Source of the DNA: Patescibacteria group bacterium
Lineage (GTDB): Bacteria; Patescibacteriota; Patescibacteriia; UBA1558; GWA2-36-10
Direction: 5' to 3'
DNA: 64,000 nucleotides
Assembly: GCA_041665505.1 (NCBI GenBank)
Contig: JBAYIR010000001.1
Location: 220,392-284,391, forward strand
Part shown: positions 2,028 through 29,502 of the stretch, one piece after another
How positions within the stretch are numbered: position 1 is the stretch's first letter
Layout: every line of letters begins with the position of its first letter
Made by a program: the position numbers and the translations under genes
The notes under the pieces: model-generated
What the model saw: only the letters and a program-made list of their open reading frames with translations
Databases searched by the model: none
Told to the model about the DNA's origin: nothing

Positions 2028-4490
2028 ATGAGTGATTATTTTATTATTGGCATAATTTTATTAATTGGGATTATTATTCTCATAGCTTTGTTTTATTTTG
2101 CTTTCAACCATTCTAGAAGTAGAAGTAATAAAAATCTTCAATCCGAAGTGTTGTTATTAAAAATTCCCAAATATATAAAATCGGAAAAGGAAGAACACAG
2201 CAAAGAATTTGTCCAAGCTGAATTAGGGCAAGTAGAAAACTTATTTGCCGCTTTGAGTGGTCTTAAAGCGCAGAGAAAATTTTTTGGTAGGCGGACAGAT
2301 ATTTTTTCTATAGAGATTGTCTCAGTTGGAGGCTTCACGAATTTTTATGTAGCCACACCAAGTGTTTATAGAGATTTTTTGATTCAACAATTGCAAGCTG
2401 TTTATCCAAAAATATATTTTGAACCAGTTAGTGATTATAATATTTTTCAAGCACAAGGTCATATTAAAGCTGGTGCCCTTAATTTTAAGGGTGATTATAG
2501 TCTGCCAATTAAAACTTATAAGTATTTTGAAAATGATCCTTTAGAGGCGGTCACTAATTCCCTAAGCAAATTAACTGTCAATGAAGGTGCGGCTGTCCAG
2601 TATGTATTTCGGTCGGCCCCTGCTAAATGGCATGCTCGGGGTAGAAAAATAGCACAACAAATGCACCGTGGTATGACTTATAGAGAGGCTATAAAGAAAA
2701 TTGGCGGCGGCGGTTTCTGGGGTAATACGTCTCAGGTATTCAAATTTTTTGCTAGTTTTTTGACTACCAAAGATCCAAAAAAAACTGACCCAGATCAAAA
2801 CGAGCCACCACAGCCAATGTCAGCTATGGAGCAAGAGCGAGCTAAAGGTATGGAAGAAAAAACTTCTAAATCAGGGCTAGAGGTAAATATTAGAGTGGTA
2901 GTTTCTACAGCTAATCCAGAGAGATCTAAAGCTATTTTAAATGATATTTTAAATAGTTATAGTCAATATAATATTTATGAGTTTGGTAATAGTTTTAGAG
3001 CCTATATTCCTAGTAAAGCTGACTCTTATGTAGAACATTTTATTTATCGTCATTTTCTTCCTCAAAAAAGTATGCTCTTAAACTCTGAGGAAATGACTAG
3101 TGTGGTTCATTTGCCTTTAACGACTAGTGAAACACCAAATATTGCCTGGCTGGAAGCGGCTAAAGCAGCTCCACCGGTTAATATGCCGACAGAGGGAGTA
3201 ATACTTGGCAAGAGTTTTTATCGTGGCAGGGAAACTTTGGTTCGTATCAAAGATGCCGATCGTCGTCGACATATGTATGAAATTGGTCAAACTGGTACTG
3301 GTAAATCAGTATTTTTGGAAAGTCTAGCCATTCAAGACATTGCTAATGGTAAAGGGGTTTGTGTATTAGATCCACATGGTGATTTAGCTGAAACTATTTT
3401 ATCTCATGTGCCAAAAGAAAGAGCAGAAGATGTGATTTATTTTGATCCCTCAGATGTTCAAAGGCCAATGGGTATTAATATGTTGGAATTTGAAACAGAT
3501 GAACAAAAAACTTTTGCCATCAATGAAATGATAGCTATTTTTGATAAGTTGTATGATCTCAAAGCTACTGGTGGTCCAATGTTTGAACAATACATGAGAA
3601 ATACCATGTTGCTTTTGATGGATGATAAGGAAAACCAAACCACTTTATTGGAAATTCCAAAAGTTTTAGCTGACGAGAGTTATAGAAAACAAAAATTGGC
3701 TAAAGTAAAAAATTATTTAGTCAAGGACTTTTGGGAAAAAGAAGCACAAAAAGCAGGTGGTGATGCGGCCTTAGCTAATATGGTACCTTATATTACTTCC
3801 AAATTAACTCCTTTTATAGCCAATGACACTATCCGTCCTATAATATCTCAAAGTAAATCGGCTTTCAATTTTAGGAAGGCTATGGACGAAAATAAAATTA
3901 TTATTATTAATCTATCTAAAGGTAAAATTGGTGAGATGAATAGTAGTCTCTTGGGAATGATAATGATTGGTAAAATACTTTTTGCAGCCCTTAGCCGAGT
4001 AGACCTACCAGAAGAGAAAAGACAAGATTTTTATCTTTATATTGATGAGTTTCAAAATTATATTACGGAGAGTATTTCTATTATTTTATCTGAGGCTAGA
4101 AAATATAAATTAAATTTAATATTAGCTCATCAATTTTTAGCACAGTTGGTTAAATCTAAAGATAGAGATACTGGAGTAAAAGATGCTGTCTTTGGTAACG
4201 TCGGCACATTGATTGCCTATCGAATTGGAGTAGAGGATGCTGAGGTAATAGCCAAACAAATGGCGCCAGTTGTGACGCAATATGATTTGGTTAACATGCC
4301 AAAATATACTTGTTATATAAAATTATTAATAGATAACCAAAATCCACCTGCTTTTAATTTTAATCCTATTATGCCAGAAAAAGGCAATTATGAATTGGCT
4401 AAGGCTATCAAAGAGTTGTCACGCCTTAAATATGGTCGGGATAGGCTTATAGTGGAAAATGAAATAAAACAAAGAATGTCTATAATCTAA
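2028..4490 (+). CDS. VirB4/VirD4-like conjugation/T4SS-type P-loop ATPase (FtsK-HerA superfamily) with an N-terminal TM domain. This is the fused form of the split pair at 16264-19538
   Basis: There is an N-terminal TM helix. Walker A is RRRHMYEIGQTGTGKS, followed by a VLDPHGDL motif, Walker B LYIDEFQNY and AHQ. The N-terminal 400 aa aligns with ORF 16264-17754 and the C-terminal part with ORF 17757-19538. Confidence 0.7.
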   Translation: MSDYFIIGIILLIGIIILIALFYFAFNHSRSRSNKNLQSEVLLLKIPKYIKSEKEEHSKEFVQAELGQVENLFAALSGLKAQRKFFGRRTDIFSIEIVSVGGFTNFYVATPSVYRDFLIQQLQAVYPKIYFEPVSDYNIFQAQGHIKAGALNFKGDYSLPIKTYKYFENDPLEAVTNSLSKLTVNEGAAVQYVFRSAPAKWHARGRKIAQQMHRGMTYREAIKKIGGGGFWGNTSQVFKFFASFLTTKDPKKTDPDQNEPPQPMSAMEQERAKGMEEKTSKSGLEVNIRVVVSTANPERSKAILNDILNSYSQYNIYEFGNSFRAYIPSKADSYVEHFIYRHFLPQKSMLLNSEEMTSVVHLPLTTSETPNIAWLEAAKAAPPVNMPTEGVILGKSFYRGRETLVRIKDADRRRHMYEIGQTGTGKSVFLESLAIQDIANGKGVCVLDPHGDLAETILSHVPKERAEDVIYFDPSDVQRPMGINMLEFETDEQKTFAINEMIAIFDKLYDLKATGGPMFEQYMRNTMLLLMDDKENQTTLLEIPKVLADESYRKQKLAKVKNYLVKDFWEKEAQKAGGDAALANMVPYITSKLTPFIANDTIRPIISQSKSAFNFRKAMDENKIIIINLSKGKIGEMNSSLLGMIMIGKILFAALSRVDLPEEKRQDFYLYIDEFQNYITESISIILSEARKYKLNLILAHQFLAQLVKSKDRDTGVKDAVFGNVGTLIAYRIGVEDAEVIAKQMAPVVTQYDLVNMPKYTCYIKLLIDNQNPPAFNFNPIMPEKGNYELAKAIKELSRLKYGRDRLIVENEIKQRMSII

Positions 4491-4596: not shown

Positions 4597-5181
4597 ATGT
4601 CAAAAGAAAAAAAAATTAAAGATTTAGAAGCTTTATTATATAATTTAGAATTAGAACTCACCAAGACTAAACAAGTTTTAGGTGAGTTAAGTGGTAAAAA
4701 CTCTTCTGAAGCGGCCAATTATAGTTTGAAGGCGGCTAGAGTCGGTAAGCAGATAGATGGTGATGAAGGTTTGGTAGTAGAAGGAGTTTTCAATGGCCAG
4801 ATTATGATTGGTCCTGATGGCAAACAATATAGTGTACCAGCTAATTATGCTTCTAAATCTAAATTAGTAGAAGGGGACATTCTAAAGTTAACTATAAATT
4901 TTGATGGTTCATTTATTTTTAAACAAATATCGCCAGTAGAAAGAACGAGATTGGTAGGCCACCTCATTAAAGATAAGAGTACTAATGAGTTTGTGGTTTT
5001 GGCTGGAGACAAGATATATAAGGTTCTAATGGCCTCAGTAACCTATTTTAAAGGCGAAGAGGGTGATGAGGCAGTTATATTGGTCTCCAAAGATTCTGAT
5101 AGTAATTGGGCCGCTGTAGAGAATATAATTAAAACTAATCATAGAGGGATTTCTACTGACGAATTGGATTTTAGTCTTTGA
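4597..5181 (+). CDS. Hypothetical protein with an N-terminal coiled coil
   Basis: ORF of 194 aa between the ATPase gene and dnaX. No family was recognised. Confidence 0.4.
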   Translation: MSKEKKIKDLEALLYNLELELTKTKQVLGELSGKNSSEAANYSLKAARVGKQIDGDEGLVVEGVFNGQIMIGPDGKQYSVPANYASKSKLVEGDILKLTINFDGSFIFKQISPVERTRLVGHLIKDKSTNEFVVLAGDKIYKVLMASVTYFKGEEGDEAVILVSKDSDSNWAAVENIIKTNHRGISTDELDFSL

Positions 5182-6763: not shown

Positions 6764-6839
6764 ATATTTTATACTTCTTTATTTACAATAATTATACTTT
6801 GGTGTATAATATATTATGTACAATACGTATTATTTGTTG

Positions 6840-6886
6840 CCCTTAATATTATTGGAGTAGCAAATATCGCTAATAAAATATTATAA
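6840..6886 (+). pseudogene. 3' remnant of a third VirB2-like pilin gene copy (encodes ...VANIANKIL*)
   Basis: About 45 nt, together with the following 36-nt spacer, are near-identical to the 3' end and downstream spacer of the two intact pilin genes. Compare 6851-6922 with 7243-7315. Confidence 0.6.
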
Positions 6887-6922
6887 TTTATAATTAACTA
6901 ATAAATAGTAATTCATAATACT

Positions 6923-7279
6923 ATGAAAAAAATATTAACATTCGCTTTGTTATTTCTACCTAGCGTAGCTTCAGCTCAAATAACCGTCAATGACTGGGGA
7001 TACAATGAGTTAGCTCAAGGCAATATCGCCTTAGGTACCAGAGACTTAAGATCAACAATTGCTGGAGTTATAAACATTGTTCTAGGTTTCTTAGGTGTTT
7101 TAACTACTGTGATTATTCTCTTTGGTGGTTTTAAATGGATGACTTCTTATGGTGATTCTTCTAAAGTTGATGAAGCTAAAAAAATGATTGGAGCTGGTGT
7201 CATTGGTCTAGTAATCGTATTGACCGCTTATGCCATTTCCAGATTCGTATTAGTAAATATCGCTAATAAAACATTATAA
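6923..7279 (+). CDS. VirB2/TrbC-like T4SS pilin candidate, tandem copy 1
   Basis: 118 aa. Signal peptide ending ASAQ, then two hydrophobic helices (IAGVINIVLGFLGVLTTVIILFGG and GAGVIGLVIVLTAYAI). This is the VirB2 topology. Confidence 0.55.
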   Translation: MKKILTFALLFLPSVASAQITVNDWGYNELAQGNIALGTRDLRSTIAGVINIVLGFLGVLTTVIILFGGFKWMTSYGDSSKVDEAKKMIGAGVIGLVIVLTAYAISRFVLVNIANKTL

Positions 7280-7315
7280 TTTATAATTAACTAATAAATA
7301 GTAATTCATAATACT

Positions 7316-7669
7316 ATGAAAAAAATATTAACATTCGCTTTGTTATTTCTACCTAGCCTAGCTTCAGCTCAAAATGTCAATGACTGGGGATACAATGAGT
7401 TAGCTACTGGTAATATCGCTCTAGGTACCAGAGACTTAAGATCGACAATTGCTGGAGTTATAAATATTGTTCTAGGTTTCTTAGGTGTCTTAACCACTTT
7501 GATTATTTTGTTAGGTGGTTTCAAATGGATGACTTCTTATGGCAGTTCTGACAAAGTTGATGAAGCTAAAAAAATGATTGGCGCTGGTGTCATTGGTCTA
7601 GTAGTGGTATTAACTGCTTATGCCATTTCCAGATTCGTATTAGTAAATATTGCTAATAAAACAATCTAA
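7316..7669 (+). CDS. VirB2/TrbC-like T4SS pilin candidate, tandem copy 2
   Basis: 117 aa and about 85-90% identical to copy 1. The two sit within a 393-nt direct repeat unit. Confidence 0.55.
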   Translation: MKKILTFALLFLPSLASAQNVNDWGYNELATGNIALGTRDLRSTIAGVINIVLGFLGVLTTLIILLGGFKWMTSYGSSDKVDEAKKMIGAGVIGLVVVLTAYAISRFVLVNIANKTI

Positions 7670-17756: not shown

Positions 17757-19538
17757 ATGGAAAACAGAATTACAACTTTTGCTGAAACAAATTATAGAAA
17801 TTCCAATGTTAGATTTGGCATAAAAACTGATGACCGTCGTCGTCATATGTATTTTATTGGTAAAACTGGTATGGGTAAGTCTACAGTTTTGGAAAATATG
17901 ATTATTCAAGATATTCAAGACGGTAAGGGAGTTTGTGTAGTAGATCCTCACGGCGATTTAGTAGAGAAGGTCATTAATTTTGTGCCCTCTAGTCGTATTA
18001 ATGATGTAATATATTTTAATCCAGCTGACTTGGATTTTCCCATTGGTTTTAATGTTTTGGAAAAAGTAGATGCTAGCCAAAGGCATTTGGTTGTATCGGG
18101 ACTAATTGGTGTTTTTCAGAAGATTTGGGCTGATTCATGGGGTCCTAGATTGGAATATGTACTCCATCATGCTATTTCAGCTCTCTTAGAGTATCCTGGC
18201 TCCACTTTGCTTGGTATTATGAGAATGTTGACCGACAAAGCTTTTAGAAAAAGAGTAGTGGAAAAATTGTCTGATCCAGTAGTTAAAGCCTTTTGGATAG
18301 AAGAATATTCTAAATATCCAGATAGGTTTCAATCCGAAGCTATTGCTCCTATTCAAAATAAAGTTGGTCGTTTCCTTTCCTCAGCTTTGATTAGAAATAT
18401 ATTAGGGCAAGTCAATTCATCTTTTTCTATGAGAGATATCATGGATGGCCAAAAAATATTACTTTTGAATCTGTCTAAAGGTAGAGTAGGTGAAGATAAT
18501 TCAGCACTACTGGGGGCGATGATGATTACCAAAATTCAATTAGCCGCCATGAGTAGAGTTGATACTCCGGAAGAAGAAAGAAAAGATTTTTATCTATATG
18601 TAGATGAATTTCAAAATTTTGCTACAGATTCTTTTGCTAATATTTTATCTGAGGCTAGAAAATATAAACTTAATCTTATTATTGCTCACCAGTATATTGA
18701 ACAAGTAGAAGAAAATATTGCAGCAGCTGTTTTTGGTAATGTTGGTACTTTGATAGCTTTCAGAGTCGGTGCGGCTGATGCTGAATTTTTGGAAAAAGAA
18801 TTTTTTCCAACTTTTACTCAAGAGGATTTGGTCAATCTTTCCAAGTTTGAAATTTATATCAAACTAATGATTGATGGTGTAACCTCAGAAGCTTTTTCAG
18901 CTAGAACCTTGCCACCAGTAGCGATGACGGAAGAATTTATAGACATTAAAGAAAAAATAATCAGGGTGACTAGAGAAAGATATGCCAAACCAAGAGCAGT
19001 TATAGAAGATAAAATTATTCGTTGGTCAGAAGGCAGAGGAGAAGATGATATAGATAAGATTCCTGATAGATTAATCAATGAAGCTGTTATCGATAAGTCT
19101 CTCGCTAAAGACATAGCCCCTGTGAGTAGAGAAAATTCAGCTAGTAAAGCCAAGAAAAAAAGAAGAAAATCCAAAGACACTGGTTTTAGTAAAGATGTTA
19201 TTTGCGATTTGTGTGGTAAACAAACTACTATAAATTTTGATCCCGATCCAACTAAACCTATTTATTGCAGAGAGTGTCTAGACCTTTCTAGAGCTGGTAA
19301 AGTTCCGCCACCATCAAGTATTAAAATAATTTCTGATGACGGGCCAGTTGAAGAATTTACTTCTCTAGCTGATGCTTTGAAAGGCAGAAAAGTGACTGTC
19401 AAAAAAACTGAAAATTTAGAAAGTAAGTCAGAAGAGGAAGAAAATATAAAACAGAATGAAGATTTAAGCTCAGAAAAAATTAAAAAAGATGACCAGTCGG
19501 CTGAAGATTTAAAGCCCGGTCAAGTAATAAAATTTTAA
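17757..19538 (+). CDS. ATPase half of a split VirB4/VirD4-like P-loop ATPase, with a C-terminal acidic/Lys-rich tail and a CxxC...CxxC zinc ribbon
   Basis: RRRHMYFIGKTGMGKS, VVDPHGDL, LYVDEFQNF, AHQ. The C-terminus has CDLCGK...CRECL. The start lies 2 nt after the stop of the upstream ORF. Confidence 0.7.
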   Translation: MENRITTFAETNYRNSNVRFGIKTDDRRRHMYFIGKTGMGKSTVLENMIIQDIQDGKGVCVVDPHGDLVEKVINFVPSSRINDVIYFNPADLDFPIGFNVLEKVDASQRHLVVSGLIGVFQKIWADSWGPRLEYVLHHAISALLEYPGSTLLGIMRMLTDKAFRKRVVEKLSDPVVKAFWIEEYSKYPDRFQSEAIAPIQNKVGRFLSSALIRNILGQVNSSFSMRDIMDGQKILLLNLSKGRVGEDNSALLGAMMITKIQLAAMSRVDTPEEERKDFYLYVDEFQNFATDSFANILSEARKYKLNLIIAHQYIEQVEENIAAAVFGNVGTLIAFRVGAADAEFLEKEFFPTFTQEDLVNLSKFEIYIKLMIDGVTSEAFSARTLPPVAMTEEFIDIKEKIIRVTRERYAKPRAVIEDKIIRWSEGRGEDDIDKIPDRLINEAVIDKSLAKDIAPVSRENSASKAKKKRRKSKDTGFSKDVICDLCGKQTTINFDPDPTKPIYCRECLDLSRAGKVPPPSSIKIISDDGPVEEFTSLADALKGRKVTVKKTENLESKSEEEENIKQNEDLSSEKIKKDDQSAEDLKPGQVIKF

Positions 19539-23824: not shown

Positions 23825-24025
23825 ATGGATGAAGAACTATATAAAAAAATAGACGCTCTGGAAATAAAAATAAACGAAATTTACAAAGTTACCAATGCCG
23901 CTAAAAAAATGTTTATTTGGAGCTCGGTGATTAGCCTATTATTATTTGTCATACCTCTAATTATACTAATGTTTGTTTTACCGGGTATGCTTGATACTCT
24001 TACTAGCTCTTATTCTGGTTTATAA
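23825..24025 (+). CDS. Small membrane protein
   Basis: 66 aa with a single TM helix. Confidence 0.3.
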   Translation: MDEELYKKIDALEIKINEIYKVTNAAKKMFIWSSVISLLLFVIPLIILMFVLPGMLDTLTSSYSGL

Positions 24026-24040
24026 TTATCTATCATAAAC

Positions 24041-24084
24041 AAAAAATCATCCAGTTGCTCGTGAATGGCTGGATGATTTTTTTA
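24041..24084. terminator. Bidirectional intrinsic terminator between convergent genes
   Basis: Perfect 10-bp stem AATCATCCAG/CTGGATGATT flanked by an A-run and a T-run. Confidence 0.65.
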
Positions 24085-24525
24085 TTCTATCTTGATTATT
24101 TCATATTTAGCTAGCTTATCACCCAATTTTATTTCTACAATATCTCCAATAGCTTTACCCAATAAAGCTAAGCCTAAGGGAGAGTGGTGAGAAATAACCC
24201 CCGCGCTAGGATTGGTTTCTGAAGAGCCTAAAATACGATATTGCCGTTTCTGGTCATCTATTTTAGTAGTTATTAAATGGCCGATTTGCACAGTTTGTTT
24301 ATTTTTATTTACTTCAATAATTTGGGCATTGGCAATTTGTTTTTCAATATTTAATATTTTTTGATTTACCCCACGCAGGCTGCCTTTGGCCATTTGGTAA
24401 GCGGCATTTTCAGAAAAATCACCCATCAAAGCCAATCTTTTTACTTCGGCAATCAACTTAGGCTGAACATCTTTTTTTAATCTATCTAAATTTTTTTCTA
24501 GCTCAGCCAATTTATCCTCCGTCAT
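24082..24525 (-). CDS. greA: Transcription elongation factor GreA
   Basis: GreA N-terminal coiled coil (MTEDKLAELEKNLDRLK) and C-terminal FKBP-like domain. The ORF track extends 21 codons further to 24588, but the family N-terminus supports the internal Met. Confidence 0.8.
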   Translation of the reverse strand: MTEDKLAELEKNLDRLKKDVQPKLIAEVKRLALMGDFSENAAYQMAKGSLRGVNQKILNIEKQIANAQIIEVNKNKQTVQIGHLITTKIDDQKRQYRILGSSETNPSAGVISHHSPLGLALLGKAIGDIVEIKLGDKLAKYEIIKIE

Positions 24526-24669
24526 AAAAGGATCAGATTTTATATTTGTGTATTGTCCACCTTTTCTAATTGGTACTCTCATAGTCACTAGTATACTTTA
24601 TATATTATTTTTTTGCTAATTATTTTTTATAAAAAATAATAACTGTGGATAAGTATGCTTATAAAAGTA

Positions 24670-24697
24670 TTGACATAGTTTGTAGATGTGATATTAT
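24670..24697 (+). promoter_or_regulatory. Sigma-70-type promoter (TTGACA-16-TATTAT)
   Basis: Consensus -35 and -10 boxes precede the GC-rich, ORF-free stretch. Confidence 0.5.
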
Positions 24698-24704
24698 TTA
24701 TTTA

Positions 24705-24925
24705 CAAGATCGACAGTAGAGAGAGGTTAAGGGGAGGGAAGGATACAAGTTTCTGGATGAAGTTTCTGCGGCTTAGCACTAGGCAATAGAAACTTCATCC
24801 ACAATCATATCCCATCCCAATCACAAAAAAAATCACAACCCCTATCACAATCACAACCTATCACTCTCAACACCAACCCCTGTCGGTCTTGAATCATGTC
24901 CAAAAAATTTAGGGACATTTTTTGT
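24705..24925 (+). ncRNA. Candidate structured sRNA of unknown class
   Basis: No ORF on either strand, and GC-rich relative to the flanks. A 13-bp perfect internal hairpin (24755-24767 with 24788-24800) is nested in an outer helix (24708-24716 with 24880-24888). A CA-rich tract carries repeated AUCACA motifs. The 3' hairpin at 24895-24918 is followed by T6. Confidence 0.4.
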
Positions 24926-24994
24926 TTGACTTAAATTGTTTTAAATAAATAAAAAAACCTCTTTAAAAAGGTATTTTTTGTTTAATAATGTTTA

Positions 24995-25507
24995 TTATTT
25001 TGGTACACTCACACAAGAAAGAGAGGTATAACCCTCACCATCACATTCATCTATACGAGGCTGGGTCTCTAAATTAAACTGTAAAAGATAATAATTTTTA
25101 GGAGAACCAATAATCTTTTGGTACAAATATAAATAAATAACTTGATTTGGTTCATTTTGATTAACTACAGCATTAATTGGATCGCGTGGCATAGCATCTA
25201 AACCAGGTAGCCATTGATTATCTATAGGGTGGTTATAATCAGCACTGATACAGCCACTTATACTTAGTAGACCAGAACATCTGCCATCTTCGGCAGGATA
25301 ATCATCGCCTGTAGTATAATTATAAATTTCCAAAGCTTTACGAATTTGAGTAATATCGCTTAGTCTTCTAGCATCTCTAGCCTTAGCTTTAAAATGGTTT
25401 AAATTAACTACTGCCGCAGTAGAAATAATACCAATAATAGCAATTACTACCAATAATTCCACTAAAGTAAAACCTAGTTTTTGTCTTTTAAAATGGTATA
25501 AAAGCAT
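24995..25507 (-). CDS. Type IV pilin/pseudopilin (prepilin with N-terminal methylation motif)
   Basis: KLGFTLVELLVVIAIIGIIS class III signal and hydrophobic helix. C-terminal Cys pair. Confidence 0.8.
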   Translation of the reverse strand: MLLYHFKRQKLGFTLVELLVVIAIIGIISTAAVVNLNHFKAKARDARRLSDITQIRKALEIYNYTTGDDYPAEDGRCSGLLSISGCISADYNHPIDNQWLPGLDAMPRDPINAVVNQNEPNQVIYLYLYQKIIGSPKNYYLLQFNLETQPRIDECDGEGYTSLSCVSVPK

Positions 25508-25632
25508 AACTATATAAGTATAGCATAAATTTGCTTTTTATTAATAGACTTTGTTATGCTTGAAATTATAAAATAGAGAAAGAGGAGACGCCCTAAGACG
25601 CCTCCTCTTACATATAGCTCAGGCTATTGATG

Positions 25633-25845
25633 CTAAATAGCCTTGAAGTTGCCCCAACCATTCCAAAGAGGCTGACCATGACGATCCCGCTGAGAGTCTA
25701 CCTGTATGAAAACGTCTTGGATGCTAGTCAAACCCCATCCAGCCAGAATTTCACGAGGTGGGTCTTTGCGGATGCCAGTGATAATATGAATCTTGCCACT
25801 ACCAATGGCTTTGACTTTCTGACCCTTTTTGAATTCACAAGGCAT
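25633..25845 (-). CDS. Small hypothetical protein (70 aa)
   Basis: Perfect SD AAGGAGG 7 nt upstream of the ATG. Lies in the GC-rich island. Confidence 0.5.
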   Translation of the reverse strand: MPCEFKKGQKVKAIGSGKIHIITGIRKDPPREILAGWGLTSIQDVFIQVDSQRDRHGQPLWNGWGNFKAI

Positions 25846-25869
25846 TTTCTTTCCTCCTTGAGCTGGAAG

Positions 25870-25901
25870 GCATGTGGTGTGTGAGAGAACAAAAAAGTCG
25901 C
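25870..25901 (-). terminator. Hairpin plus U-tract in the 5' leader of the small ORF (terminator or attenuator)
   Basis: On the minus strand, GTCGCTTAG-cagt-AAGCGAC followed by TTTTTT, located just upstream of the RBS. Confidence 0.45.
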
Positions 25902-26107
25902 TTACTGCTAAGCGACGAACTGGTATTTAATATAAATTATAGACTAAATAACAAATCACCACTTAACAATATAAGGGTTGTACCAAAAGAAGAAAAAATT
26001 TGGCTTGATTTGTCTCATAAAATATATATTATAATATTTTATTCAATTTGGCAAGTAACTTAAAAAAGAGCTTTTTTAAAAGCTTATATTTTTGATTAAT
26101 TTTTTGA

Positions 26108-26142
26108 GTGCCTGCCTCATCACGCTAAAGGTGACGAGGCAG
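26108..26142 (-). terminator. Stem-loop immediately 3' of the hydrolase gene
   Basis: 14-bp stem GCCTGCCTCATCAC/GTGACGAGGCAGGC with one mismatch. A second small hairpin plus U-run follows at about 26055-26075 on the minus strand. Confidence 0.45.
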
Positions 26143-26152
26143 GCTCAAGACT

Positions 26153-26833
26153 TCAGACGTCCGCTATGATGCGGTCGCCGTATTCACGACGGAAGGAGTT
26201 GATTTGCAGAAGCAGAGCCTCCAAGAGATGTTCTCCAACATAGATTCGAGTTGGAGACTGCCAGTGTGAGGACTGCTCCATGAGCTCCAAGAGGTATCTG
26301 GCCAAAGGCACATATTCGCGAATGGTTTCGTTTATTTGCTTGATTTGAAACTCTGGGTCAGCCTTGAATCCCAGAGTGCGAAGATTGGCTACCCGATCAG
26401 CTAGTTTGAGAATAATTACCTCAATACTGCCAGCTTCTCGCATTTGACGGATATAAGAAAGCTTATCCCGCTTATAATCTTCGCCTTTACTCAAAAGTTC
26501 AACCCAATAGCGGACTGTGGAGCCAAAAAGCCTCTCAATCTTGTCCAAGCTGAGTTTGTCAGCCTCTACAGCATCATGAAGCCAAGTCACAACATTCATC
26601 TGCCAGTCGTCTTTGATACCCAGTTCGCAGCTGACTAAATCAGCTACATCACGCAGGTGTTTGAAGTAGTAGGTGACACCATCACCACGATACTCACCAC
26701 GGTGAGCCCATTTCCCCAGACGGTAGGCGCAGACCATCAAGCGTGCTTCTTCAGGGTCATTGATGTAACCCTGAAAACGAACCAAATAGCGTTCGTAGCC
26801 GCGCATTTCCTCAGGTTTTTTTCTGACTTTCAT
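26153..26833 (-). CDS. HD-domain (p)ppGpp hydrolase, SpoT/Mesh1-type small alarmone hydrolase
   Basis: LHDAVED and KLADRVANLRTL match the RelA/SpoT HD hydrolase motifs. Strong SD AAGGGGGT before the internal Met (MKVRKK), so the start was trimmed from the ORF-track coordinate 26869. Distinctly higher GC than the genome. Confidence 0.7.
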   Translation of the reverse strand: MKVRKKPEEMRGYERYLVRFQGYINDPEEARLMVCAYRLGKWAHRGEYRGDGVTYYFKHLRDVADLVSCELGIKDDWQMNVVTWLHDAVEADKLSLDKIERLFGSTVRYWVELLSKGEDYKRDKLSYIRQMREAGSIEVIILKLADRVANLRTLGFKADPEFQIKQINETIREYVPLARYLLELMEQSSHWQSPTRIYVGEHLLEALLLQINSFRREYGDRIIADV

Positions 26834-26947
26834 GTTCGTTACCCCCTTGTTGACGTGAATTGTAAACAACCAAAGTTAATGTCAATAGTTATACTATAGT
26901 CCAAAATTAATGTCAAACATATATTTGTTGATAAATTAGCTAAAATA

Positions 26948-26977
26948 TTGACATAATATCTTTTTTTGTTCTATTAT
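26948..26977 (+). promoter_or_regulatory. Sigma-70 promoter (TTGACA-18-TATTAT)
   Basis: Consensus boxes upstream of an ORF-free GC-rich unit. Confidence 0.55.
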
Positions 26978-26983
26978 TTAAGG

Positions 26984-27346
26984 GTATCTAGAAGTTCCAT
27001 TTTCAAAATCCATCGTGGTTGTAGAAGTCCTAGGAGGGGAAGAAAGAAGCGACTCAATTAGGGAAGATGACCATGATGGTAGACCATCAAACTACGAAGT
27101 TAAGTAGAGGCGCCTGAACGTCTGCCAAACGACGGCCCTCTCCAGCCAATTAACTTCCTGCTTTGATGGTCATCCTTGGATGACTGCTGCTGTGAGCATC
27201 ACGTGTGAGTATCACGCCGAGCTCTCGCCTTCGGCATAGGTGGTGTTTTGCTCAACCCGAGCTTAAGTTCTAAGTCCTCAGCCGCTTGTAGCAGCAGCAT
27301 CCATGGATGAGCCCCCGGTCCGTACTGGGGGCTCGCTTTCTTTTTT
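26984..27346 (+). ncRNA. Candidate structured ncRNA A (about 360 nt), class unknown
   Basis: No ORF of 60 aa or more on either strand despite high GC. Long-range complementarities include CCTTGGATGACTGCTGCTG with CAGCAGCATCCATGG, and GATGACCAT with ATGGTCATC. There is a UUCG-type tetraloop (GCCTTCGGC). It ends in a strong terminator: a 10-bp GC stem at 27309-27334 followed by TTTCTTTTTT. Confidence 0.5.
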
Positions 27347-27359
27347 AAAATTTATACTA

Positions 27360-27388
27360 TTGACATTAACTATAAAATAAGCTATAAT
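27360..27388 (+). promoter_or_regulatory. Sigma-70 promoter (TTGACA-17-TATAAT, perfect consensus)
   Basis: Located immediately after the terminator of unit A. Confidence 0.6.
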
Positions 27389-27394
27389 ATATAA

Positions 27395-27647
27395 TCCTTT
27401 CGTTTTTTGTAGCCATGAGCTAATAAGCTAATGGGTCGCCGGTAGGTAACTCCAGGTCGTTGTAAGGGCACCCTCCTTCAATGACTGCCACCACGCCTGT
27501 CGGCGACCCAGTTAATAGTTGGACCTTGGGCTGGGAAGCATATTCCCCAGCACCACTAGCCGAGCTGAGCTGAGCGGAAAACTCAGTCCAAGGTCCACCA
27601 CCTTTTGCCCTGCCAGAAGATCACTTCGGCAGGGTCTTCAATTTGTC
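27395..27647 (+). ncRNA. Candidate structured RNA B (about 250 nt); possibly a cis-regulatory leader of alaS or an independent sRNA
   Basis: 9-bp helices GGGTCGCCG/CGGCGACCC and GGACCTTGG/CCAAGGTCC, plus internal hairpins (CTGGGAA-gcata-TTCCCAG and CTGAG-cggaaaa-CTCAG). Ends in the terminator-like hairpin CCCTGCC...GGCAGGG followed by a U-rich tail. About 85 nt upstream of alaS. Confidence 0.45.
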
Positions 27648-27732
27648 AAAATTAATTGACTTTTTAGCTTAAATTTATTAAAATATATAAGTATTTACTA
27701 TAAAAGTAGTAAATTTTTTCCAATAAACAATT

Positions 27733-29502
27733 ATGACTAGCCAAGAATTAAAAAACAATTTTTTCCAATATTTTCAGAGCAAAGATCATACTTTGATTAG
27801 TTCTGCTTCTTTGATTCCAGAAAATGACCCCACAGTATTATTTACTACTGCTGGTATGCATCCTTTGGTCCCATATTTGATGGGTGAAAAACATCCTGCT
27901 GGTCTGCGTCTGGTTAATGTTCAAAAATGTCTACGCACCGGAGATATTGATGAGGTAGGGGATGCTACACACCATACTTTTTTTGAAATGCTTGGTAATT
28001 GGTCTTTGGGGGATTATTTTAAAAAAGAGGCTATTGAATTTTCTTGGGAATTTTTAACTGAGATATTAAAACTAGATAAAAATAAATTAGCTGTTAGTGT
28101 CTTTGCTGGAGATGATGATGTTAGTCGTGATGAAGAAAGCTCTCAGATTTGGCAAAGCATTGGCGTTAGCAAAATTGCTTATCTTGGTAAAAAAGATAAT
28201 TGGTGGGGCCCAGCTGGACAGACTGGTCCTTGTGGTCCAGATACTGAAATATTTTATTGGACTAGTAGTGAGTCTGTACCAGATAATTTTGATCCAGAAG
28301 ATAAACGCTGGGTAGAAATCTGGAACAATGTCCTGATGCAATATAATAAAACTATTAATGGCCAGTATGAGCCACTGAATCAAAAAAATATTGACACTGG
28401 TATGGGTCTAGAAAGGACTCTAGCTGTTTTAAATGGTCTAGATGATAATTATTTGACTGAACTTTGGCAGCCGATTATTAAACAATTAGAAAAATTGTCA
28501 GCTAAAAAATACGGAGATGATAAAAAATCTTTTCGTATTGTAGCTGATCATATCAGGAGTGCTGTATTTTTGATGGGTGACCCTAGAGGTATTGCTCCGG
28601 CCAATAAAGATCAAGGTTATGTACTGCGTCGATTAATCAGACGAGCCATTCGTTTTGCTAAATTATTGGGTATAGAACAAGATTTTTGTGTATCCTTAGC
28701 TCAAGTGATTATTGATTTATATAAAATAGATTACCCGGAATTAGAAACAAATCAAAAATTTATAATTGATGAATTAGCTAAAGAAGAAAATAAATTTAGT
28801 CAGACGATTGAAAAAGGTATTAAAGAATTAGAAAAATTAGTAGACAAAAATTTGCTCAATGAAAAAGAAGCTTTTCAACTTTTTGCTACTTATGGCTTTC
28901 CATTAGAGATGACTTTGGAATTAGCTAAAGAAAAAGGCTTAAATTTGTCTGAAAGTAAATATCAAACAGAATTTAAACAACACCAAGATTTATCTCGCAC
29001 CGCTTCAGCTGGTATGTTTAAAGGTGGTTTAGCTGATGATAGCGAAATGGCCACCAAATATCATACTGCTACTCATCTTTTGCACCAAGCACTGCGTAAT
29101 GTTTTAGGTAATCATGTGGAGCAGCGTGGTTCTAATATCAATGCTGAGCGCTTACGTTTTGATTTTGTACATCCTGATCCAATGACCGCAGAGCAGATAA
29201 AAAAAGTAGAGGATATTGTCAATCAACAAATTCAATTGGCTTTGGCAGTTACTTGTGATGAGATGTCAGTAGCTGAAGCCAAAGAGCAGGGAGCAATTGG
29301 ATTATTTGATAAAAAATACGGAGAAAAAATAAAAGTATACACAGTTGGTCCAAACTCCTCAACCAGCTCGGAACCTCCTTTTAGTCGGGAAATTTGTGGT
29401 GGTCCACATGTCAAAAATACTAATGAATTAGGTAAATTTAGTATCAAAAAAGAGCAGTCTTCTTCAGCTGGTATCAGACGTATAAAAGCGGTGTTAGAAT
29501 AA
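27733..29502 (+). CDS. alaS: Alanine--tRNA ligase, short form (catalytic plus editing domains; lacks the C-terminal C-Ala/oligomerisation region)
   Basis: Class II AlaRS N-terminus (FTTAGMHPLVPY), WGPAGQTGPCGPDTEI, and editing-domain HxxxH (HTATHLLHQALRNVLG). Only 589 aa. Confidence 0.85.
   Translation: MTSQELKNNFFQYFQSKDHTLISSASLIPENDPTVLFTTAGMHPLVPYLMGEKHPAGLRLVNVQKCLRTGDIDEVGDATHHTFFEMLGNWSLGDYFKKEAIEFSWEFLTEILKLDKNKLAVSVFAGDDDVSRDEESSQIWQSIGVSKIAYLGKKDNWWGPAGQTGPCGPDTEIFYWTSSESVPDNFDPEDKRWVEIWNNVLMQYNKTINGQYEPLNQKNIDTGMGLERTLAVLNGLDDNYLTELWQPIIKQLEKLSAKKYGDDKKSFRIVADHIRSAVFLMGDPRGIAPANKDQGYVLRRLIRRAIRFAKLLGIEQDFCVSLAQVIIDLYKIDYPELETNQKFIIDELAKEENKFSQTIEKGIKELEKLVDKNLLNEKEAFQLFATYGFPLEMTLELAKEKGLNLSESKYQTEFKQHQDLSRTASAGMFKGGLADDSEMATKYHTATHLLHQALRNVLGNHVEQRGSNINAERLRFDFVHPDPMTAEQIKKVEDIVNQQIQLALAVTCDEMSVAEAKEQGAIGLFDKKYGEKIKVYTVGPNSSTSSEPPFSREICGGPHVKNTNELGKFSIKKEQSSSAGIRRIKAVLE

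Follow-up and report, generated by a model that had tools for sequence, protein, structure and literature searches.

Genes and base composition of the greA-alaS interval

The 64,000-nt stretch of Patescibacteria DNA analysed here (hereafter the window; contig JBAYIR010000001.1) carries, between greA (24082-24588, (-) strand) and alaS (27733-29502, (+) strand), a block of about 3 kb that is the subject of this study. Listed by position, the block holds a candidate RNA gene (RNA_A), a type IV pilin-like gene, a 70-codon open reading frame (ORF70) preceded by a predicted leader-peptide attenuator, a gene for a stand-alone HD-domain protein that resembles small alarmone hydrolases (SAHs; the protein is called HD below), and two further candidate RNA genes (RNA_B and RNA_C). 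An earlier note on this DNA had described a prepilin, a 70-aa ORF with a Shine-Dalgarno (SD) sequence and a stand-alone hydrolase between greA and alaS, and this gene content was borne out, the hydrolase being an HD_4 protein. Two elements come in addition to those of the note, namely a third promoter-RNA-terminator unit (24670-24924, (+)) and the leader-peptide attenuator (25891-26054, (-)). Loci or contigs of related Patescibacteria, designated L003, L004 and L007 to L015, were used for comparison.

The window has an overall GC content of 33.1%. At 24600-27660 this rises to 39.7%, compared with a mean of 32.9% (standard deviation 1.1, maximum 35.6) in 549 other segments of the same size, which is an excess of about 6 standard deviations. 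The elevated GC content reported in the earlier note was thereby confirmed, but not its extension over a uniform 3-kb island: the excess is patchy. Specifically, the GC content is 0.42 for RNA_A, 0.47 for ORF70, 0.48 for HD, 0.51 for RNA_B and 0.53 for RNA_C, while it is 0.329 for the pilin gene, 0.30 for the leader and 0.14-0.17 for the spacers. GC content at third codon positions (GC3) is 0.50-0.51 for HD and 0.45 for ORF70, compared with 0.16-0.30 for all others of the approximately 60 ORFs of the window. The GC excess has two causes, the first being the base-pairing demands of the RNAs within an AT-rich genome and the second a maintained bias of HD and ORF70 towards G/C-ending codons.

The pilin-like gene (24995-25507, (-)) encodes an N-terminal prepilin cleavage/methylation motif (PF07963 N_methyl, E 1.7e-8; TIGR02532). 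Since its GC3 (0.17) is ordinary and its GC content equals the genome mean, it lies outside any composition island. It is also missing from the cluster in L004 and L013, and it is probably a syntenic neighbour of the module and not a part of it.

As had been claimed, 26870-27732 lacks any ORF that begins with a start codon and reaches 60 aa; the longest such ORF has 46 aa and the longest stop-free stretch 66 aa. This region had been divided into two units, each bounded by a consensus promoter and an intrinsic terminator. Both promoters are indeed close to consensus (11 of 12 positions at 26948, 12 of 12 at 27360) and the first unit ends in a strong terminator (27308-27335), but the scan did not call the terminator of the second unit, where the T-run is weak. 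The top three sigma-70 matches of a 4-kb scan (24670, 26948 and 27360) all lie on the (+) strand, each heading a GC-rich segment that is free of ORFs.

A predicted leader-peptide attenuator upstream of ORF70

The approximately 300 nt between HD and ORF70 are about 80% conserved in L007, L010, L011, L003 and L015. A consensus scan placed a promoter for the leader and ORF70 at 26026-26054 (-) (TTGCCA, 17 nt spacer, TAATAT), and this promoter is kept in the leader alignment. It is followed by a leader ORF of 20 codons plus UGA (25956-26018, (-)) that encodes MRQIKPNFFFFWYNPYIVKW. The ATG at 26018 lies only 7 nt past the -10 box and has no SD sequence, from which a leaderless mRNA is predicted. 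The distance between the ATG and the -10 box is 7 nt in the window, L010, L007 and L011, and 9-10 nt in L003 and L015.

The corresponding leader peptides are MRQIKPNFFFFWYNTYIVKW in L010, MKQINQKFYFFWYSAYIAKR in L007, MEQINQKFYFFWYNAYFAKR in L011, MKQINQNFNFFWYNAYIVGR in L003 and MKQINQNLNFFFFWYVATNW in L015. All six leaders, including that of the window, are alike in length, frame, position of the stop codon and an F-x-F-F-W-Y core, and the codons in the relatives differ by synonymous UUU/UUC and UAU/UAC changes.

Four segments of the leader RNA can pair in alternative ways. Segment 1 (CGCUUA) pairs with segment 2 (UAAGCGGUGAUUUGUUAUUUAG), segment 2 alternatively with segment 3 (UAAAUACCAGUUCGUCGCUUA), and segment 3 alternatively with segment 4 (UAAGCGAC), which is followed by U6. 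The antiterminator formed by segments 2 and 3 (25903-25971, (-); identified by masked folding) is therefore mutually exclusive with the upstream 1:2 pairing and with the 3:4 terminator. The latter was found by a terminator scan at 25891-25916 (-) as GUCGCUUAGCAGUAAGCGAC plus U6, with the hairpin proper at 25916-25897. In an alignment of seven sequences, 91.3% of the cells of the antiterminator are paired, compared with 31-48% in slid controls, and five pairs changed on both sides; for the terminator 94% of the cells are paired and two pairs changed on both sides. Slid controls across both conformations gave 31-54% paired cells. An upstream helix of ACAAAUCA and UGAUUUGU is 89% paired in the same seven sequences. 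Constraint folding was used to model the position of the ribosome: a ribosome at the stop codon left only the terminator in six of six leaders, and a ribosome at the F/W codons gave the long 2:3 antiterminator, again in all six. The architecture of this attenuator, with its leader ORF and both conformations, is well supported by these comparisons.

The leader is predicted to act by classic ribosome-mediated transcription attenuation of the pheL/trpL type. Free translation up to the UGA would bring the ribosome over segment 2, so that the 3:4 terminator forms and transcription stops before ORF70. When charged tRNA-Phe, tRNA-Trp or tRNA-Tyr is scarce, the ribosome would stall at the FFFFWY codons, segment 2 would be free to pair with segment 3, and RNA polymerase would read through the resulting antiterminator into ORF70. 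The charging of tRNA-Phe, tRNA-Trp and tRNA-Tyr would thus be the presumed signal.

With the pheL-pheA, pheM-pheST and trpL attenuators the leader has in common a short ORF with a run of Phe or aromatic codons. It further shares with them the mutually exclusive 1:2, 2:3 and 3:4 hairpins, a U-tract terminator before the regulated gene, and a stop codon placed such that a terminating ribosome blocks the antiterminator. Unlike these systems, the leader of the window belongs to Patescibacteria and not to Proteobacteria, it is apparently leaderless and without an SD sequence, and its target is a KOW-like orphan of 70 aa beside an alarmone hydrolase instead of a biosynthetic or aminoacyl-tRNA synthetase gene. 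The leader gave no match to the Rfam Phe_leader family (RF01859), even at E<=10. In mycobacteria, leaderless polycysteine short ORFs are reported to serve as Cys-responsive attenuators (bioRxiv 10.1101/834739). The common features are a leaderless short ORF and a codon run of which the translation sets downstream expression; the leader of the window differs in amino acid and phylum and in having an explicit pair of intrinsic terminator and antiterminator.

Antitermination would equally follow if the ribosome paused for any other reason upstream of segment 1, and the leader might accordingly be a general translation-stress or antibiotic leader, as for ABC-F and erm genes, or encode a hydrophobic peptide with a function of its own. 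The hydrophobic nature of the peptide and the non-biosynthetic nature of ORF70 would fit such readings, as would a paralogous attenuator in L003 of which the peptide (MNHINHTAKKNVVKKSYELVVGVL) lacks an obvious codon run. We regard them as unlikely, since conservation of the peptide across six lineages is highest at F-x-F-F-W-Y, which sits exactly where stalling frees segment 2; the regulatory codon run of pheL leaders is positioned likewise (PMC3082878). Moreover, the stop codon has a fixed position within segment 2 in six of six lineages, and 20 residues are too short for a membrane-spanning toxin. An aromatic tRNA sensor is the reading that we retain.

The paralogous attenuator of L003 (1640-1915) precedes an ORF of 86 aa just downstream of HD. 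An 84-aa homolog of this ORF is present in L015 (3185-3439) between HD and the ORF70 leader, without the paralogous attenuator, and an ORF of this type is missing from the window.

ORF70, a lineage-restricted orphan

ORF70 (25633-25845, (-)) has an AAGGAGG SD sequence at 25853-25859, 7 nt before its ATG, and is followed by an intrinsic terminator (25580-25609, (-)) with a 13-bp stem and a T-run. Only three clusters of ORF70 were found, both in a library of 5.8 billion and in one of 1.84 billion proteins, and the version in L015 is 27% identical to that of the window. Searches of Pfam, NCBIfam and PHROG gave no hit. ORF70 is a lineage-restricted orphan. Its predicted fold is KOW/SH3-like, where the match is generic to SH3, KOW and Tudor barrels. 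ORF70 probably binds RNA or the ribosome, although the support for this is weak. The OLE RNA with its KOW-like partner OapB offers an analogy to ORF70 and the neighbouring RNAs, and an analogy only, as there is no OLE RNA match and no sequence similarity.

HD, an alarmone-hydrolase-like protein

The HD gene (26153-26869, (-)) encodes a stand-alone hydrolase of the RelA/SpoT homolog (RSH) type, with a PF13328 HD_4 match (E 2.6e-9) above the curated cut-off. An alignment with homologs indicated the ATG at 26833 as the likely start (226 aa). The protein is single-domain (226-238 aa in the family), without synthetase, TGS, ACT or other Pfam domains. A profile of seven family members matched Rel/SpoT hydrolase domains in the PDB (E 5e-21), as well as the structures of Mesh1 and bacterial SAHs (approximately 1e-13 to 1e-6), and of the roughly 700 positions of the NCBIfam SpoT/RelA profiles HD covers only the first 170 or so, which form the N-terminal hydrolase part. 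Pfam, the PDB profile and NCBIfam thus concur with the SpoT/Mesh1-type SAH that the earlier note had recognized. Invariant in the family alignment are the HRG and HD (H98 D99) motifs, E102, D158 and N162. The ED dyad (residues 102-103, numbered on the translation of 238 aa) is E-A in the protein of the window, and EA, ES, ED, ED, ED and EN in relatives.

The HD family comprises seven clusters among 5.8 billion proteins, and scans of metagenomes and genomes with the HD profile yielded at least three loci. Judged by these profiles, HD is an RSH protein with the hydrolase alone, in other words an orphan SAH of a new and rare subfamily, with (p)ppGpp as its presumed substrate. It resembles Mesh1, PaSAH, SAH-Mex and the toxSAS-linked antitoxins in being a lone RSH hydrolase domain without synthetase, TGS or ACT domains. 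It differs from known SAHs in a conserved C-terminal extension of about 45 aa, in the non-conserved D of the ED dyad, in the rarity of its family and in its maintained atypical GC3, and from the toxSAS-associated SAHs in having no adjacent toxSAS. No synthetase domain was found beside HD, of which the neighbours are the pilin gene, ORF70, greA, alaS and the RNA genes, nor in the tables of the related loci. A literature search on ppGpp and SAHs in the candidate phyla radiation (CPR) returned nothing relevant to this locus.

Three candidate RNA genes

The RNA_A promoter (24670-24697, (+); TTGACA, 16 nt spacer with TG, TATTAT; 11 of 12 positions) lies in a block that is kept in L007, L010 and L004. 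The predicted RNA of about 221 nt (24704-24924, (+)) has a minimum free energy (MFE) z-score of -6.76 and is laid out as a closing stem, a GAGAG/CUCUC helix, an apical hairpin, a C/A-rich 3' half and a terminator hairpin with T-run. Matches were obtained with nhmmer in L010 (3e-75), L007 (4e-36) and L004 (3e-11), and the parts conserved in these three relatives are the promoter, the 5' CAGUAGAGAGAG, the apical hairpin and the 3' CUCUCACACCAACCCCUGUCG. RNAalifold returned 47 pairs of which eight are compensatory, four of them in the closing stem of L004. Some unpaired stretches of RNA_A are C-rich, like those by which small RNAs pair with SD regions; within the window, the complement of the conserved C-rich loop occurs only at chance level.

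RNA_B (about 362 nt; 26984-27345, (+)) is a multi-helix RNA with a z-score of -6.10 that ends at the terminator 27308-27335. Its promoter (26948-26977, (+); TTGACA, 18 nt spacer, TATTAT) is kept in L007. Homologs were found by nhmmer in L010 (6e-115), L007 (3e-29) and L011 (3e-20), with AGGAGGGG and AGCGACUCAAUU as invariant single-stranded segments, and 16 of the 74 pairs given by RNAalifold are compensatory. In the 5' domain 95.3% of the cells are paired, compared with 27-59% in slid controls, with eight double-sided changes versus zero to four. A covariance model of RNA_B, named R1, recovered the copies of the window, L010, L007 and L011 at E<1e-36. On the single RNA of about 410 nt in L015, which has compensatory P1 and outer P2 helices, R1 gave a weak match (9 bits, E 0.012, filters off), and there was no match in L012, L013 or L009, which leaves the homology of the distant alaS-upstream RNAs unproven. 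Substitutions in RNA_B are without codon periodicity. A hidden small protein or tmRNA-like tag starting at ATG ATG GTA GAC was considered and rejected, as the frame is not kept in L007 and the region consists of two covarying helices.

The third RNA gene, RNA_C (about 252 nt; 27395-27646, (+)), forms two long hairpins with a z-score of -5.69 and has a terminator-like hairpin at 27607-27636. Its promoter (27360-27388, (+); TTGACA, 17 nt spacer, TATAAT) is kept in L010 and L007. Homologs are nearly identical in L010, cover the 5' part in L007, and are also present in L004, where several compensatory changes preserve hairpin 1 (GGGUCGCUUUGAG...GCUUGAAGCGACCC). At 27562-27574 RNA_C contains the 13-mer GAGCUGAGCUGAG, expected 0.02 times per window, which recurs exactly in the HD-proximal RNA of L004 (657-669, (-)) and at 12 of 13 positions in the RNA of L015 (around 4667-4679). 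This sharing hints that modules are exchanged between the RNAs, and it would fit either an RNA module that is mobile or a site bound by a shared protein.

The RNAs have a nucleotide identity of 70-80% at loci of which the flanking proteins show 58-66% identity. MAFFT alignments of the L015 and L004 RNA homologs were poor, and compensatory changes were here read from the sequences and single-sequence folds. A search of 24500-27800 with the 4227 families of Rfam 15, both at gathering thresholds and at E<=10, gave no credible match, and the same search of 10 related loci no credible family. The proposal of the earlier note that the ORF-free stretch may carry novel structured RNAs was hence upheld, in that these RNAs are conserved and covarying in relatives and belong to no Rfam family; the housekeeping hits (rnpB, ssrA or ffs) that it had named as an ordinary explanation were not obtained on the block. 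The sequence evidence gives good support to three conserved structured RNA genes that are predicted to be independently transcribed and are candidates for new families.

Some further observations concern RNAs at equivalent positions. In L015 two convergent GC-rich promoter-terminator units (707-925, (+), and 1225-941, (-)) lie between greA and the pilin gene in place of RNA_A; nhmmer gave no link of either unit to RNA_A, and one of them has a sub-threshold Rfam match to suhB/mmgR (33 bits versus a gathering score of 41). In a contig of the Joint Genome Institute (JGI), the source annotation calls a 204-aa ORF without Pfam hit inside the alaS-HD gap (locus 6774-7388), which probably reflects GC-rich RNA genes miscalled as coding sequence. 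In L004 the gene for a 66-aa membrane protein is located directly upstream of RNA_A in the same orientation.

Housekeeping RNAs and an alaS leader as alternatives

Their sizes of 221-362 nt, strong constitutive-looking promoters and conserved positions are also what could be expected of housekeeping RNAs too divergent for Rfam to detect in the CPR, with RNA_A, a long irregular hairpin, as 6S RNA, and RNA_B as RNase P RNA or transfer-messenger RNA (tmRNA). We consider this improbable. The RNase P, tmRNA, signal recognition particle and 6S models had no hit at E<=10 in the 3.3-kb search or in relatives, ARAGORN detected no tmRNA and there are no tRNA-like ends. Divergence is moreover too fast for RNase P or tmRNA cores, the RNAs of distant relatives being non-alignable. 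Compared with 6S RNA, a rod-like hairpin of about 180-200 nt with a conserved central bubble, RNA_A is likewise a long hairpin, but an irregular one with internal loops that are strongly asymmetric and variable in length, and RF00013 was not hit. RNA_B carries GGAGGGGAAGAAAGAAGCGACUC, which we take to be loosely similar to the CR-I region of RNase P RNA. Its identity as RNase P RNA was nevertheless rejected because the would-be P4 partner, the candidate 3' strand, is not conserved in L007 or L011 and no covariance model hit was obtained. A tmRNA was likewise dismissed for RNA_B, given the negative ARAGORN and Rfam results and a short ORF of which the frame is not conserved.

All relatives examined, including L012 that lacks HD, have a promoter, a structured RNA and a terminator upstream of the alaS promoter. 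These alaS-upstream RNAs are 270-410 nt long with z-scores of -4.2 to -8.1, and those of distant relatives, at the same slot, are non-alignable and indicate fast evolution. Such a constant position just upstream of alaS, together with CCACCA-like strings that can be read directly after helices in RNA_C and its L004 homolog, might suggest that RNA_C and its syntenic counterparts are a cis-acting leader or sensor of alaS, either T-box-like or binding the alanyl-tRNA synthetase. However, in all loci a conserved alaS promoter lies downstream of the RNA terminator; in the window it is located at 27656-27684 (+), and its block ATTGACTTTTTAGCTTAAATTTAYTAAAAT is kept in L010, L012, L013 and L015. RNA_C is therefore not simply an alaS leader. 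Nor was a T-box (RF00230) hit in the window or in relatives, and the RNA sequence is not kept between distant members in the way a ligand- or tRNA-binding leader would be, so that we give this explanation a small chance. The recurrence of a promoter-RNA-terminator unit before the alaS promoter in every relative instead identifies these elements as stand-alone RNA genes in a conserved slot. RNA_A, RNA_B and RNA_C themselves most likely act as stand-alone regulatory or otherwise trans-acting RNAs, or as RNAs of ribonucleoproteins.

Within 27636-27684, an inverted repeat, TTGTCAAAATTAATTGAC, overlaps the -35 box of the alaS promoter, and it may be an operator for autoregulation of alaS.

Surveys from the Breaker laboratory describe structured non-coding RNAs in GC-rich intergenic regions of AT-rich genomes (for example PMC8632094, PMC11109978). 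With these RNAs, RNA_A, RNA_B and RNA_C share long, GC-rich, ORF-free intergenic regions with own promoters and terminators, and covariation. They differ from them in the lack of an Rfam match, the presence of three RNAs in one 3-kb locus, their fast evolution and the sharing of modules such as GAGCUGAGCUGAG.

Inheritance of the locus

The gene order of the block is repeated in at least seven contigs of related Patescibacteria. Wherever the available DNA extended far enough, HD had this setting, an alaS-RNA(s)-HD-...-greA order being seen in L007/L008, L010, L011, L015, L013/L009, L004 and the 73-kb JGI contig. Specifically, the order is alaS-RNA_C-RNA_B-HD-leader-ORF70-pilin-RNA_A-greA in L010, alaS-RNA-HD-131aa-greA in L013/L014/L009, and alaS-RNA-RNA-HD ... 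RNA_A-66aa in L004. HD and GreA have diverged in parallel, with identities to the window proteins of 94 and 90% in L010, 66 and 64% in L007, 54 and 58% in L015, and 51 and 64% in L013. The GC3 of HD is 0.38-0.62 across all lineages versus 0.17-0.29 for greA, alaS and the pilin gene. Since this bias survives a large divergence of the orthologs, it is a maintained property and not the fading trace of a transfer.

The earlier note had instead regarded the block as an acquired or phage-derived island, with the SAH as antitoxin of a toxSAS toxin or as counter-defence enzyme and the RNAs as accessory elements. Several observations could be cited for this. GC and codon usage of the block, which by the test set in the note would have spoken against an acquired origin had they matched the genome average, do differ from the rest of the genome, HD and ORF70 being strong GC3 outliers; SAHs are known antitoxins of toxSAS toxins (PMC7229694); HD has weak PHROG matches (E 5e-15); and its family is rare. 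Of the features of a genomic island, however, the atypical composition applies only to HD, ORF70 and the RNA genes, and not to the pilin gene or the spacers, and the GC3 bias is unameliorated despite amino-acid identities of 50-60%. The relatives have the block in place between alaS and greA, in at least seven lineages, which speaks against an acquired island. None of the loci has a RelA_SpoT synthetase of the toxSAS type next to HD, nor do the tested proteins of the window include one, so that the antitoxin or counter-defence role was not substantiated either.

Searches for mobile or defence elements point in the same direction. No integrase, transposase or other mobility gene was found among the 37 window proteins scanned. 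No tRNA flanks the block; flanking direct repeats were not searched for. BLAST of 26870-27732 against 50,697 phage records gave no match. PADLOC had no hit on HD, ORF70, the pilin or the neighbouring small ORFs, and PHROGs and NCBIfam matched these proteins only generically, as HD and pilin, with nothing that pointed to defence or phages. In three pattern scans of IMG/VR, the RNA_A and RNA_B motifs had no match; two matches of the attenuator motif lay inside coding sequence without an attenuator and were discarded as chance. A recent transfer appears already largely refuted by these comparisons, and we judge the island explanation as a whole very improbable. That the block was not recently acquired but passed down vertically, as a locus specific to a single clade of Patescibacteria, is well supported.

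Further GC3 outliers were noticed near HD in relatives, against a background of about 0.2-0.3. These are an isochorismatase-like gene in L004 (2092-2598; 0.50), a 115-aa membrane-like ORF in L015 (2279-2626; 0.54) and a 150-aa ORF in L009 (11740-12192, equivalent to L013 3281-3733; 0.51).

Neighbouring genes

A 66-aa single-pass membrane protein (MDEELYKKI...SSYSGL; window 23825-24025) always adjoins the locus and has homologs in L003, L004, L007 and L010. Elsewhere in the window, two genes for TrwB/VirD4-like coupling ATPases (DUF87/HerA-type; 2028-4490 and 17757-19538) lie amid housekeeping genes. The second of these has a treble-clef zinc finger, and a homolog is found at the same relative position in L012. 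Tandem paralogs of about 118 aa (6923-7279 and 7316-7669) have near-identical, signal-peptide-like N-termini (MKKILTFALLFLPS...).

Discussion

Taken together, we think it probable that the greA-alaS interval is an inherited locus that combines a starvation-linked protein module, consisting of the SAH-like HD and the attenuator-controlled ORF70, with three new structured RNA genes. In the module, the hydrolase-only RSH protein would be followed immediately downstream by the leader and ORF70 as a separate transcription unit, and RNA_A, RNA_B and RNA_C would be transcribed independently of these proteins. That the units are actually transcribed, and that the parts are functionally linked, is what we infer from their arrangement and conservation.

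Several points weigh against this interpretation. The promoters, transcription start sites and terminators were all predicted from consensus alone, and covariation was derived from three to seven sequences, some of which are close (the RNA_C of L010 is about 95% identical). In three lineages the MFE structure of the free leader RNA is the antiterminator form, and the switch would therefore depend on kinetics. ORF70 is not a gene of amino-acid biosynthesis, and the logic of a Phe/Trp/Tyr sensor ahead of it is unexplained. As the ED dyad is not kept, (p)ppGpp hydrolysis by HD is uncertain, and the alarmone itself is not proven to be present, given that a scan of 37 window proteins showed no (p)ppGpp synthetase. 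Finally, RNAs adjoin alaS also in L012, which has no HD, and there is therefore no necessary functional tie between the RNAs and HD or ORF70.

A more far-reaching scheme, in which an amino-acid-auxotrophic clade would run all parts as one starvation circuit, can also be conceived. The leader would then read the charging of tRNA-Phe, tRNA-Trp and tRNA-Tyr, the output would be ORF70 as a KOW-like protein that binds RNA or the ribosome, ORF70, HD and the RNAs would act jointly as a ribonucleoprotein growth control, and the G/C-ending codons of HD and ORF70 would be selected for translation under starvation. We regard this scheme as speculative and unlikely.

To our knowledge, almost nothing is known about gene regulation in CPR bacteria (Patescibacteria). 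The attenuator represents a known mechanism in an unexpected lineage and with an unexpected output. A search of the literature on leader peptides in the CPR found no description that covers the locus and, as far as this literature shows, the attenuator would be the first leader-peptide attenuator described in this radiation. If true, auxotrophic episymbionts would monitor tRNA charging directly, with an output other than a biosynthetic or tRNA synthetase gene. The maintained GC3 anomaly of HD and ORF70 is a caution against equating composition outliers with horizontal transfer. The three RNA genes add candidate families of which the ends, the promoters and part of the structure are defined, and can serve as seeds for metagenome-wide covariance models. 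Lastly, the pairing of the attenuator with an orphan alarmone hydrolase provides an entry to testing (p)ppGpp-type signalling in the CPR.

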